Source: a bacterium (lineage in GTDB: Bacteria > UBA8248). Taken from it: a DNA stretch of 64,000 nt. Shown piece by piece: positions 39,666-42,762 of this stretch; the stretch's first letter is position 1; the number at the start of each line of letters is the position of its first letter. Both the position numbers and the translations under genes were made by a program. The notes under the pieces were generated by a model. It saw only the letters and a list, made by a program, of their open reading frames with translations, did no database searches and had not been told where the DNA came from. The stretch lies in NCBI GenBank assembly GCA_965200245.1, contig CBDATS010000004.1, positions 1,280,001 to 1,344,000 of the forward strand, in the 5' to 3' direction.

Positions 39666-40757
39666 TCAGGCTGTATGGGCTTCCTGTGCCATTGATCGGC
39701 TCAACCGGCGATATTCACCGAACGAAATGAGCTTGCCTCGCTGTTCGTCCCAGAGCGCGAGATTCAGCGACTTGAACCCTTCCCGCAACGTGATTCGATG
39801 GGCGGACCACAACTCCGGATTCTCGTCGTGACAGCGTTGCAACCGGTAGTTTGGGATGCGAGGACTCAGATGGTGCACGTGATGCAAGCCGAAGCTGGCG
39901 GTCAGCCACTGCAACGGTTTCGGGAGTGCGAGCCATGACGAGCCCTGCAATCCTGCGTCGAAGAAATCCCACTCGCCGGCCCTGCACCAGTAGGCGTCTT
40001 CGAACTGATGCTGCGTGTGGTTCATCCAGCCAGCGATCGCGCATCCGTAAAGCATGATCATGCCCTGGATGATCAGGACATGCAGGAGAGTTTCGACACC
40101 GGCGGCCAGCCAGATGCCCGCCAGCAATACCGCTAGGGCGGCGTTGGTTCGCCATACCGAGCGTCGTTCCCGCGTCTAGGAACGCGGTATGCCGAATGTA
40201 AAACGGTGCACGACCACGAACTTCAAAGTAATAAGGATACCGATCATCACGATGGGATTGCGAAGCAAGCGGTACGCGAGCCGGCCCCTCCACTCCCGCG
40301 CACTGTATTGGGCTGTCGTGAGGGTGAGGATATCACCGCCCCTGTGACTGTCCAGTTTGCCCGAGTCCGCATGATGAAATGCGTGAGTCGTATTCCAGTA
40401 GTCGTAGGGGTTGAGGACCAGCACCGCGAGCGCGTTACCGACAGCGTCGCATGCCCGTCGCGACGTGAAATAGGAGCCGTGGCCGCAGTCATGCTGAATG
40501 ACGATCAGCCGCACCATCAAACCCGCCGCAGGCAAGGCGATGATCGCGGTCGCCCAATAGCCGATCTCCACACTCTGGAGCAATACGACCCACGCGAGGC
40601 CGTACAGGATCAGGGTGACTGCCAGTTGCGACAGACTGCGGCGATTGTCCGCCCCTTCGTAGGGAGCCAATATCTGTCTCCACCGTTCCTTCTACATCGC
40701 CTGGCGGATCAACAGGTCAAGGGTACCTAGGGTTGCGTTAGCGGGTTTGGAGGCCAC
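39666..40757 (-). pseudogene. Membrane fatty acid desaturase with in-frame TAG codons
   Basis: His boxes HDCGH, HAFHH, HHVHH; one frame from GTG 40757 (AGGAG RBS) with TAG at 40692-40694 and 40176-40178. Confidence 0.85.
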
Positions 40758-41636
40758 TGTATTTCTCCTGGATTTCCTTGAACGGGTTTGGCCTGAAAGG
40801 TCGTGTCCCCTTTCGGGCGCGCTCAGTCAACCATGGGCGAAGCACCTAGCCCTCGTGTCTCCTCAGTTTGAGGCGGAACCTCGCCCGAAATTATGAGCCG
40901 GATATTTCATTTTCTGTCCACGCATCATCAAACGTACGCCGAAAAGCGAGCATCCTTGAATAATTCTCATAATACAATATTTATATTGGATTTCAAGAAA
41001 AAACAGTGTTTCAGTTGGGACGGGGACCTACCGGATTCATTGACCAGAAAATTCAGACTGAGACGCTGTCGATATCGATTTGTACGTATTGCATCGACAA
41101 GGATAATGCATTCTAGGCTGGAGATTGCCTGAAAACGAGGGATATGTCCCAAGGGGTGTGGGATTTGTCGGTGACGAGTTCCTGTGTGGAATATTCCAAA
41201 CGGCCCGCTGGAGATGTTTGACAGGTTCGGACAATTTACCCGATGGCGTTGGTCGATCACATGGGTTCGTTGCAGGACGCTGGTCAGTCCCGGCCTCGTG
41301 TGTGATTCTTGCGCAATGCGGGTCGGCGCTGCCTGCGGGCAGTGCGGTCATCAGTTGATTTCGAGATGCGTTTGCATGAAGAGATGCCGCTATTCAACAT
41401 GTCAATCGATGTGCCGCGCAATGCACCGATCACTGACTATGTGACAGAATGCGGTCAGTTCAGCGATGCATGCGAAAGTGATCGGAATCTTCCCTCTCGA
41501 AACGATGAGTTTCGATCCGTTCCCCTGCCTTGTTTTGCGTCCGTTTTCTTGACGAATTTCACATTCCGCAAAAACGCCTTTGCCAGGTTCTCCATTAAAA
41601 CAGGGAATGGCAACTATGTAGTCTGACTTATCGAGC

Positions 41637-41729
41637 TGGCGGAGAGGGAGGGATTCGAACCCTCGAGGCACCTTGTGGGCACCTATACGATTTCCAGTCG
41701 TACTCCTTCGGCCTCTCGGACACCTCTCC
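41637..41729 (-). tRNA. tRNA-Ser (GGA)
   Basis: GGAGAGG acceptor stem, anticodon arm TACGA-CTGGAAA-TCGTA, long variable arm, GGTTCGAATCC T-loop, encoded CCA end. Confidence 0.96.
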
Positions 41730-41867
41730 GCAAGGTGGGGCCGCCACATGAATCATCAGGCGGCCGTGCGGGGGTTTGTATATCACGGAAAATGAGGGGC
41801 TGTCAGTCCGCCGTCTCTGTCGCGTCTTGACTTTTTGCCATTCTTCGCTGATTATTCGAAGCACGTC

Positions 41868-41991
41868 AGAAAGGAGGTGATCCTAATATGAAAATACACT
41901 GTAGGGACGAGGTGACCGGAGCCTAGGGGAGATGCCCTCGGGAGATTCCCACGGGTTCATCTTCGCCCAGGCGAATCCCCACCAGGTCACC
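41868..41991 (+). ncRNA. Candidate structured small RNA containing an extended Shine-Dalgarno and a 12-aa ORF (41888..41926, MKIHCRDEVTGA)
   Basis: AGAAAGGAGGTGATCC then ATG; nested stems GGTGACC/GGTCACC, GGGGA/TCCCC, GATG/CATC, GGGA/TCCC, TTCGCC/GGCGAA. Confidence 0.5.
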
Positions 41992-42001
41992 GAACGATGG
42001 G

Positions 42002-42031
42002 AAACCCCGGTCCATGAGGGCCGGGGTTTTT
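42002..42031 (+). terminator. Rho-independent terminator
   Basis: AAACCCCGG-tccatgaggg-CCGGGGTTTTT. Confidence 0.75.
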
Positions 42032-42099
42032 CACGTCACGTCATTTATAAAGCTTTCATCTTTCACTCCAATTTTTTCAATGCATAAGGAGCATGTTTC

Positions 42100-42558
42100 A
42101 TGTCTCAGGCGAGTTGGACAGTCTACCTCTCGGGAGAAGTGCACACGGACTGGCGCGAGCGGATCACCGAGGGTACCGAGAAAGCGGGCCTGCCGGTTAC
42201 CTTTCTTGCCCCCGTCACAGATCACGGTGCGAGCGATGATTGCGGCGTGTCCATCTTGGGGGATGAGGAAAAATCCTTCTGGAAAGACCGTAAGGGCGCG
42301 GGCGTGAACGCCATCAGAACGCGCACGTTGATTGAAAAGGCGGACGTGGTGGTCGTGCGCTTTGGCGATAAATACAAACAGTGGAACGCTGCATTCGATG
42401 CGGGTTACGCAGCGGCCCTGGGGAAGGCCATCATTACACTGCACGACCCGGGTCACACCCATGCACTCAAGGAAGTCGATGCCGCCGCCATGGCCGTGGC
42501 TGAGGAACCCGATCAGGTGGTGCGGATTCTCAACTACGCCATCAATGGAACTTTATAG
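42100..42558 (+). CDS. YtoQ family protein
   Basis: VYLSGEVHTDWRE, PVTDHGASDDCG, RFGDKYKQWNAAFDAGYAAALGK. Confidence 0.88.
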   Translation: MSQASWTVYLSGEVHTDWRERITEGTEKAGLPVTFLAPVTDHGASDDCGVSILGDEEKSFWKDRKGAGVNAIRTRTLIEKADVVVVRFGDKYKQWNAAFDAGYAAALGKAIITLHDPGHTHALKEVDAAAMAVAEEPDQVVRILNYAINGTL

Positions 42559-42762
42559 AAGGGTCATTTGCAGCAACATATGATTTTCCCTGTTCCCCGG
42601 CGTACCTGTATTTCCATGCAGGAATTTGTTTTGGTGATTGATCGCCTAGCAATGCATGCCGACCATATTGCCGGGGAAACAAAAGAAGAATCCATGCAGG
42701 AATATCCATTTCGGGTATTCCTGCAAAAGGTGACTCTTCGATATGATTCCCCTCGAATTCCC

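Follow-up and report, generated by a model that had tools for sequence, protein, structure and literature searches.

Ms_IGR-5 was reportedly first described by Li et al. in 2013, in Mycobacterium smegmatis. Rfam holds it as family RF02471, classed as Gene; small RNA (sRNA) and entitled "Actinobacteria sRNA". In the parts of the published reports available to us, a homologue was validated by RNA-seq in Streptomyces lividans (PMC8079986), in S. avermitilis another constitutes a transcription unit for a small RNA whose ends were mapped (PMC8780764), Ms_IGR-5 was detected again in M. smegmatis (PMC10454040), and ribosome footprints lie on the homologues of M. abscessus and M. smegmatis (PMC4974804). 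Here we analyse what is almost certainly a distant relative of this RNA, located at about 41862-42031 in a 64,000-nucleotide stretch of bacterial DNA (the window; lineage UBA8248, assembly GCA_965200245.1, contig CBDATS010000004.1, positions 1,280,001 to 1,344,000 of the forward strand).

In the searchable literature, a scope that leaves aside supplements and the 2013 first description, we found no function, no description of a mini-open reading frame (mini-ORF) and no cross-phylum range for Ms_IGR-5. A literature search for the Shine-Dalgarno (SD) motif of the element, which is also a common 16S reverse primer, had none of the GGTGGTCC forms among the matches listed. The cross-phylum range, the frame-conserved mini-ORF, a helix that we call P0 and a masked second SD-like box appear to be absent from the searchable literature. 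Our best overall explanation, to which we give a probability of roughly 40%, is that the element is a ribosome-engaged Ms_IGR-5 RNA: loading and translation of the mini-ORF would be the selected event, the peptide would be a by-product, and the RNA would pass between a folded and an opened state.

Results

The element is a single-copy gene related to Ms_IGR-5

Searched for at the DNA level, the stretch turned up in every one of the 22 other genomes of the genus and in a single further genus. A covariance model built from 24 genus loci (R1, spanning 41863-42033 on the window) detected one copy in 38 of the 44 genomes of the order and gave weaker full-length matches in a second family, and a broader model (R2, spanning 41860-41992) had one match in each of 43 among 51 genomes of the phylum, a sample made of the same 51 genomes as the class-level sample. 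The element is a conserved single-copy gene of its own. A second, weaker R2 match was seen in a few genomes (G060:C25:12181-12315; G083; G359), and occasional duplicate copies may exist. One locus, L057 (G047:C63:12-166), lies at a contig start and has different bases at the SD position; the same genus has a normal copy (L049), the aberrant SD is probably a contig-end artefact, and L057 was left out of the counts. We also discarded a 24-nt match in G038 (L025) as spurious, as well as matches in G027 and G028 that were terminator-like only and were not found by R2.

Which family does the element belong to? An Rfam scan of the window alone gave nothing significant; the link to RF02471 is visible only through relatives. 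The RF02471 match at 41863-42015 is the sole one in the genome at E<=10, and stricter filters left none in G000. At E<=1, RF02471 matched 41 of the 51 phylum genomes, 36 of them on the element by coordinate comparison, and in three it passed the gathering cut-off (G056, 55.1 bits; G057, 49.5 bits; G041, 47.5 bits). The elements of these three genomes match R1 with E values of 1e-19 to 1e-24, and their RF02471 matches lie at the same coordinates. Moreover, the plan of the RF02471 consensus, that is, SD, UUG start, 12 codons, GAGGUG, UAG and closing helix, is shared by the window copy. We are highly confident that the window element is a divergent member of the Ms_IGR-5 family. A preliminary description of this DNA, made from the sequence alone, had matched the element to no RNA family and had suggested an Rfam scan, in which an already described family would count against its proposal; the scan is not significant for the window alone, but relatives match RF02471, so that in substance the element does match a described family.

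The range of the family was followed with a pattern of its conserved boxes, which found at least 116 stretches in species-representative genomes; 80 were taken as loci, and 77 of the 80 were judged, on their sequence and ORF features, to be the same kind of element. Among the matches listed were records titled Actinomadura, Acidimicrobiia, Binatia, "Deltaproteobacteria", Terriglobia/Bryobacterales, Sumerlaeota/BRC1, Tectomicrobia, Spirochaetales and others. R1 recovered 40 of 66 other-phyla loci at E<=0.01, and Actinomadura loci were found by both R1 and R2. In sampled genomes, R2 detected the element in 75 of 151 from the phylum of the Actinomadura record (a count that includes six unpublished genomes, G080, G063, G110, G182, G150 and G144, all matching) and in 25 of 151 from the phylum of the Bryobacterales record. 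When RF02471 was applied to eight other-phyla loci, it scored 93.6 bits on an Actinomadura locus (L082), 52.3, 36.1, 30.4 (L081, in G059) and 29.4 bits on four others, and gave no match on three; the unpublished genome G059 contributes this locus with one R1 match, two Pfam neighbours and one of the five R2-searched genomes. Judged from these homologies, the Ms_IGR-5 family extends far beyond Actinobacteria.

A complement of the 16S tail precedes a mini-ORF kept in frame

The 5' part of the window copy consists of two features:

41868-41883 (+): SD1, AGAAAGGAGGTGATCC, complementary at all 16 nt to the single-stranded 3' tail of the 16S rRNA of this genome
41888-41926 (+): mini-ORF, ATG at 41888, 12 codons encoding MKIHCRDEVTGA, TAG at 41924-41926

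The genome's own 16S gene (contig C8) terminates ...GGATCACCTCCTTTCTAAGG. In the 3,676,037 bases of the assembly, both strands considered, the 16-mer and every 13- to 15-nt word within it occur twice only, in the element and in the 16S gene, and any 12-mer of SD1 occurs at most three times. The predicted duplex between SD1 and the 16S tail reaches -28.4 kcal/mol, versus -9.5 kcal/mol for the ribosome-binding site of the downstream gene ytoQ. Because of this uniqueness and of the strength of the duplex, we consider the match real and exceptional for this genome; the preliminary description, which had noted an exact anti-16S match far longer than a normal SD, was right on this point, and the 12-codon ORF that it reported is read directly from the sequence and has a frame conserved in the family. 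No more than about 7 nt separate SD1 from the inferred 5' end, and the ATG sits 10 nt after GGAGG. The form GAAAGGAGGTG[AG]TCC is near-universal in family members, its G variant being expected to yield one G-U pair with the 16S tail.

Is the mini-ORF maintained for translation? We compared 105 sequences, comprising 80 pattern loci (among the matches listed) and 25 loci of the phylum, which were not deduplicated and encode 68 distinct peptides. In 102 of the 105, the distance from the G of GAGGTG to a stop codon is exactly 15 nt (TAG 83, TGA 12, TAA 7), and GGAGG is followed by an in-frame start at 7-13 nt, most often at 10 (ATG 82, TTG 13, GTG 7). The three exceptions (L084, L141 and L150) were judged to be chance matches in coding DNA. 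Family peptides are 11-15 amino acids long, and their length changes in threes. Since the search pattern forced TGTA and GAGGTGRCYG, the frame test was repeated on 27 loci of another phylum found by R2 alone (loci L222 and L225, from unpublished genomes, were left out), and 26 of these had the core and a stop at +15 (TAG 19, TAA 3, TGA 4). The starts in those 26 loci were TTG (15), ATG (2) and GTG (1), the other seven being without ATG, GTG or TTG. These seven loci, all from the phylum of G058, combine a maximal SD with a near-cognate start. Length steps of three and the interchange of all three stop codons point to selection for translation, as RNA shape alone would predict neither. Thus, on comparative grounds, the mini-ORF is probably under selection for translation.

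Two covarying helices and a second SD-like box

Around SD1, across the mini-ORF and beyond it, the window copy presents the following paired segments and motifs:

41864-41867 (+): P0 5' strand, CGUC, pairing with GACG at 41906-41909
41906-41909 (+): P0 3' strand, GACG, within codons 7-8
41909-41914 (+): SD2, GAGGUG, the Glu-Val codons, about 9-11 nt upstream of the stop codon
41911-41919 (+): P1 5' strand, GGUGACC-GG, in which GGTGACC (41911-41917) lies opposite GGTCACC (41985-41991)
41982-41991 (+): P1 3' strand, CC-A-GGUCACC, resembling an anti-SD
41926-41980 (+): inner domain as drawn in the preliminary description, with P2 (GGGGA 41926-41930/UCCCC 41976-41980), P3 (hairpin 41931-41961) and P4 (hairpin 41962-41975)
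41970-41978 (+): 3' motif GGCGAAUCC, immediately preceding the P1 3' strand

P0 is formed by the 4-6 nt that immediately precede the SD and the 4-6 nt that immediately precede (A)GGUG, and it takes at least ten covarying forms, among them CGUC/GACG (the window), CAUC/GAUG, CGCG/CGCG, GCAG/CUGC, GCUG/CAGC, CCAGAG/CUCUGG, CCAAAG/CUUUGG and CACG/CGUG. The family form of P1 is GGUGRCYGR with ...YRG(N)YYRCC. SD2, which overlaps the 5' strand of P1, is invariant in alignment A4 and in 26 of the 27 model-found loci.

Forty-six diverse sequences, aligned with MAFFT, were tested for covariation by five measures against 500 shuffles. For the 11 pairs of P0 and P1, 88.0% of the cells were paired (75.5 +/- 1.1 in shuffles), 81 cells were double-changed (25.6 in shuffles) and the covariation score was 0.355 (0.161 in shuffles), none of the 500 shuffles equalling the alignment in any of the three. 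All slid registers scored lower, with at most 56.4% paired. When the register of P0 was left free, strands paired with their own partners at -5.77 kcal/mol on average, compared with -3.14 kcal/mol for swapped partners (0 of 5000 permutations). RNAfold predicts that the segment 41860-42035 folds at -79 kcal/mol (z -4.99), and 0 of 200 shuffles were equally stable.

The inner domain of the window copy is able to form a three-way junction, a form that is not kept outside the genus. In a fixed-register test, P2 kept at least 4 of its 5 pairs in 5 of 23 sequence types, and P4 did so in 12 of 23. Within the genus, covariation is uninformative for the inner domain because it hardly varies there. Of the nested fold of the preliminary description, all listed pairings are present in the sequence and P1 covaries; its inner form is neither the minimum free energy (MFE) structure nor retained outside the genus. 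A motif resembling GGCGAAUCC (G-N-R-A-A/C-U-C-C) recurs at an equal position in other phyla. Relative to the window (41921 and 41972), loci L016 and L017 show a GCC->ACC change before the stop codon that co-occurs with GCG->GTG in the 3' motif; this double change, a single evolutionary event, is compensatory for a GCCU/AGGC pairing that competes with the P4 hairpin.

A probable stand-alone transcription unit in changing neighbourhoods

The signals that would delimit the transcript are as follows:

41827-41855 (+): promoter, -35 box TTGACT at 41827-41832, 17-nt spacer, -10 box GATTAT at 41850-41855, matching at 9 of 12 positions
41862-42031 (+): inferred transcript of about 170 nt, with the 5' end placed by the -10 box and the 3' end by the terminator
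42002-42031 (+): intrinsic terminator, GC-rich 12-bp hairpin at 42002-42029 and a U run to 42031, pairs kept, with one double change

TTGACT-17-GATTAT is the sole promoter-like site within 41400-42700 in a consensus scan (one found, 0.8 expected). It agrees in boxes and spacer with the preliminary description, which had placed the start of the -35 box one base too far, at 41828 instead of 41827. All other elements listed there are confirmed by the sequence of 41500-42400. In the genus-level alignment, TTGAC of the -35 box is invariant in 24 of 24 loci and the spacer drifts; in most other phyla, TTGAC-like boxes occur at an equal distance upstream of the element. With promoter and terminator both conserved, and with neighbours that vary or converge, the proposals of a strong terminator and of a stand-alone transcription unit are supported.

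Parts of 41700-42300 are present in four metatranscriptome runs of one study. In one run, a 182-nt contig sits wholly on 41876-42057 with zero differences. In the other three, contigs begin at 42090, 42103 and 42116 and cover ytoQ only, not the element. Set against the ytoQ contigs, the 182-nt contig suggests, though weakly, that a small transcript exists separately. Runs X5-X8, which contained just 0.03-0.07 of the sampled words, were excluded from contig placement, and window parts without contig cover in the RNA-seq runs carry no evidential weight.

The downstream gene (42100-42558) encodes a YtoQ-type protein (PF11071, E 1.3e-65). In the genus, ytoQ starts 66-92 nt beyond the element, on the same strand, in 21 of 23 loci, versus 0 of 20 loci of other genera. 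The latter have either a convergent gene downstream or one for Cupin-HTH, uroporphyrinogen decarboxylase (URO-D), glyoxalase, amidase or LexA, and the genes upstream differ as well. A neighbour comparison across phyla revealed no conserved neighbour gene and no linked modifying or partner gene. On the other side, a divergent tRNA-Ser(GGA), at 41637-41729 in the window, is present in 23 of 23 genus loci. In the 15 loci from other genera of the same family (f1) it is replaced in part, with tRNA-Ser(GGA) in eight, tRNA-Cys(GCA) in six and none in one, and the divergent tRNA, a neighbour of the element in family f1 only, is absent from 5 of 5 loci of the second family. Loci L050 and L053 carry a phage-integrase-like gene beyond the tRNA-Cys. 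An Rfam match to the plastid psbI-rps4 3'UTR at 41640-41689 (+) was rejected (28.8 bits, cut-off 68), being merely the antisense of the tRNA-Ser T-arm. Elsewhere in the window, the minus strand at 39715-40670 holds two overlapping ORFs (192 and 164 amino acids), the second of which matches only the first half of the fatty-acid desaturase domain (PF00487, positions 3-119 of 253); the pair may be a frameshifted or split desaturase gene.

Discussion

How could such an RNA work? A complement of the 16S tail, a frame that changes in threes and a helix masking a second SD-like box are all kept across phyla, which points to a function on the ribosome itself. From the identity of the family, its conservation, P0 and P1 and the maintenance of the frame, all of which are demonstrated above, we infer a switch and its possible output. 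The P0 stem frames a loop that displays the complement to the whole free 16S 3' tail, followed by the start codon, and this SD1 loop should bind 30S subunits far more tightly than a normal ribosome-binding site does. The 11-15-codon frame crosses the P0 3' strand and then the P1 5' strand, made of its last five codons, and ends at the foot of the inner domain. The P1 5' strand is at the same time the second SD-like box, GAGGUG, normally expected to be masked by an anti-SD-like strand (YCACC). Given the known size of the mRNA channel, an initiating ribosome must open P0, and by the time it reaches the stop codon a ribosome must have melted P1 together with the first bases of the inner domain.

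What would the opening of P1 achieve? It would free the C-rich anti-SD-like 3' strand and the GGCGAAUCC motif, either of which could then act in trans, by pairing or by binding. A ribosome at the stop codon could also re-pair its anti-SD with GAGGUG. Because the spacing (about 11 nt) is like that from SD1 to the start, and because the predicted pairing of GAGGUG with the 16S tail (-14.9 kcal/mol) comes near that with its own partner, the P1 3' strand (-15.8 kcal/mol), the box could hold a terminating ribosome. The RNA would then alternate between two states, one folded and untranslated, the other opened and bound by a ribosome, and its activity would report the number of ribosomes free to initiate. 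Since only nucleotides, frame and helices are conserved, we infer that translation as such is the signal, the peptide being a by-product. We lean slightly towards the RNA rather than the peptide as the effector; the translation-gated switch in the specific form given here is a tentative proposal, more probably wrong than right in its details. More speculatively still, and with little weight placed on it, Ms_IGR-5 and its relatives might be one ancient multi-phylum single-copy ribosome-sensing RNA that gauges initiation-competent ribosomes with an intact 3' tail, because it would pair with all of the free tail and would require a complete round from initiation to termination for its fold to open; the result would be read out through the unmasked 3' strand or through a ribosome held at the SD-like box by the stop codon.

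Several observations weigh against a ribosome-engaged Ms_IGR-5 RNA or against the evidence for it. Taken alone, the window copy scores 12.5 bits with RF02471, for a cut-off of 45 bits, and this match is not significant (E 2.7 genome-wide, 0.94 in 301 nt). In the pattern set, TGTA and GAGGTGRCYG are invariant by construction. A pattern designed to read the 16S tail in other lineages located no rRNA end in any of five genomes, and two of its three matches were the element itself. In the seven loci with near-cognate starts (L220, L221, L233, L235, L238, L239 and L240), we identified CTG (six) or ATA (one) by eye, with a frame open to the conserved stop, and such starts could mean weak translation or none. 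Two of the five covariation measures did not exceed the shuffles, namely pairs changed on both sides (5, compared with 4.9; 463 of 500) and further pair types (19, compared with 18.5; 255 of 500), and kinship inflates column-shuffle tests, in which related sequences can beat shuffles without any structure. In a fixed single register, P0 pairs only 72.8% of the cells, and three Bryobacterales-type rows are without P0 (-0.1 to -3.5 kcal/mol). The nested fold of the preliminary description combined with P0 amounts to -62.0 kcal/mol, versus an MFE of -74.3 kcal/mol that uses other inner pairs; as the form of the inner domain is not conserved across lineages, a common effector surface is undefined. 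Finally, the 42002-42031 hairpin was absent from the output of a simple terminator scan of the region, and the 182-nt contig extends 26 nt beyond the U run, such contigs giving neither ends nor strand and possibly deriving from library DNA.

Could the peptide itself be the product, with the fold merely tuning its expression or stability? The 12-amino-acid peptide (family pattern x2-6-[RGT]-x1-3-E-V-x-x-x) has a conserved frame, start and stop, tolerates 3-nt indels, makes use of all three stop codons and is preceded by a very strong ribosome-binding site; homologues carry ribosome footprints in the available part of the published data (PMC4974804). However, Glu-Val, the only invariant residues, coincide with the nucleotides of GAGGUG and P1, and the residues ahead of Glu track the covarying P0 strand. 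The Cys of the window peptide is not kept in the R2-only set of the other phylum. In the genus alignment, hardly any position from ACGTCAGAAAGGAGGTGATCC to the end of CACTGTAGGGACGAGGTG changes, not even the third positions of codons, as if CACTGTAGGGACGAGGTG were fixed as nucleotides rather than as amino acids. With weak start codons in many copies and the lack of a linked modifying or partner gene in the neighbour comparison, a micropeptide gene seems to us rather unlikely. The TTG, CTG or ATA starts would suit a decoy or parking site, on which 30S subunits or 70S ribosomes would be kept so as to withdraw ribosomes or to shield the 16S tail under some condition. Such holding would exploit the SD1 duplex, which takes in the free tail from end to end and has no counterpart elsewhere in the genome, and the placement of SD2 about 11 nt before the stop codon, the same spacing as from SD1 to the start. 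A decoy, though, requires neither a conserved stop position nor a downstream fold, and one gene copy per genome is a further objection; we hold a pure ribosome-holding role to be unlikely.

The conserved stop also bears on a base-pairing sRNA whose 5' SD would act as a stabiliser against 5' decay, the ORF serving merely to clear the ribosome. The closeness of SD1 to the inferred 5' end, C-rich strands (UCCCC, CACC) that could pair with the ribosome-binding sites of targets and the listing of the family by Rfam as an sRNA gene all suit this possibility, yet a stabiliser needs no start codon, no indel-proof frame and no fixed stop, and we find it quite improbable. As for a leader or attenuator governing read-through into ytoQ, one of the options of the preliminary description in the form of translation-coupled attenuation, the near-constant presence of ytoQ downstream in the genus and the reach of the RNA contig past the terminator would both be expected. 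Nevertheless, because ytoQ follows the element in one genus only, the element does not look like a ytoQ leader: in the other genera ytoQ is missing from all loci, and there, as in other phyla, the adjacent genes are convergent or bear no relation to ytoQ. The terminator is both strong and kept in evolution, the ytoQ contigs of three RNA runs start at 42090-42116 and exclude the element, and no conserved antiterminator was seen by eye, a 6-bp GACCGG/CCGGUC pairing that is possible in the window not being kept in L050. Among the rival explanations this one alone is clearly disfavoured, and we consider it very improbable.

If the translation-gated reading is true, the family would constitute a widespread means for cells to read ribosome availability. 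Otherwise, it still ranks among the most widely conserved unexplained mini-ORFs. In either case, an Rfam "Actinobacteria sRNA" without function is now shown in another phylum, and its function is made directly testable.

How does the element compare with known systems? STAB-SD sequences, found in cryIIIA and other mRNAs of Gram-positive bacteria, are SD-like boxes that stabilise the 5' end and require no start codon. The element is similar in its long SD-like box near the 5' end, which would bind 30S subunits; it departs from the STAB-SD definition in having a start codon 7-13 nt after GGAGG (102 of 105 sequences), a frame and a fixed stop. The consensus of CC2171 of Caulobacter (RF01867) opens with the same GAAAGGAGGUGAUCC, then GUG, and has a terminator at its end. 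However, in this comparison, made with the Rfam consensus, CC2171 reaches only 20 bits on the window (41861-42029), where 75 would be needed, and no columns other than those of the SD and the terminator align. CC2171, which the available part of its report presents as an expressed sRNA with neither condition nor function assigned (bioRxiv 10.1101/2022.01.24.477521), is possibly a sister family whose 5' end would bait ribosomes in the same way. rnTrpL/peTrpL of Sinorhizobium, an attenuator-derived sRNA with a mini-ORF whose RNA and peptide both act in trans according to the accessible portions of the reports (PMC6614838, PMC7298713), likewise combines a short transcript, a tiny ORF and a terminator. 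It is the leader of a specific operon and senses the cognate amino acid through its codons, whereas the element is without a conserved downstream gene or codon run. The likeness to Ms_IGR-5 goes further, as it includes an SD that complements the tail of 16S rRNA, a start with some 12 codons behind it, GAGGUG with the stop 9 nt later, the P1 helix and a single-copy, stand-alone placement. The window copy differs in belonging to another phylum and in having an ATG start, a U-tract terminator and a compact three-way-junction inner domain; the structure drawn by Rfam pairs the SD with downstream bases and has no P0.

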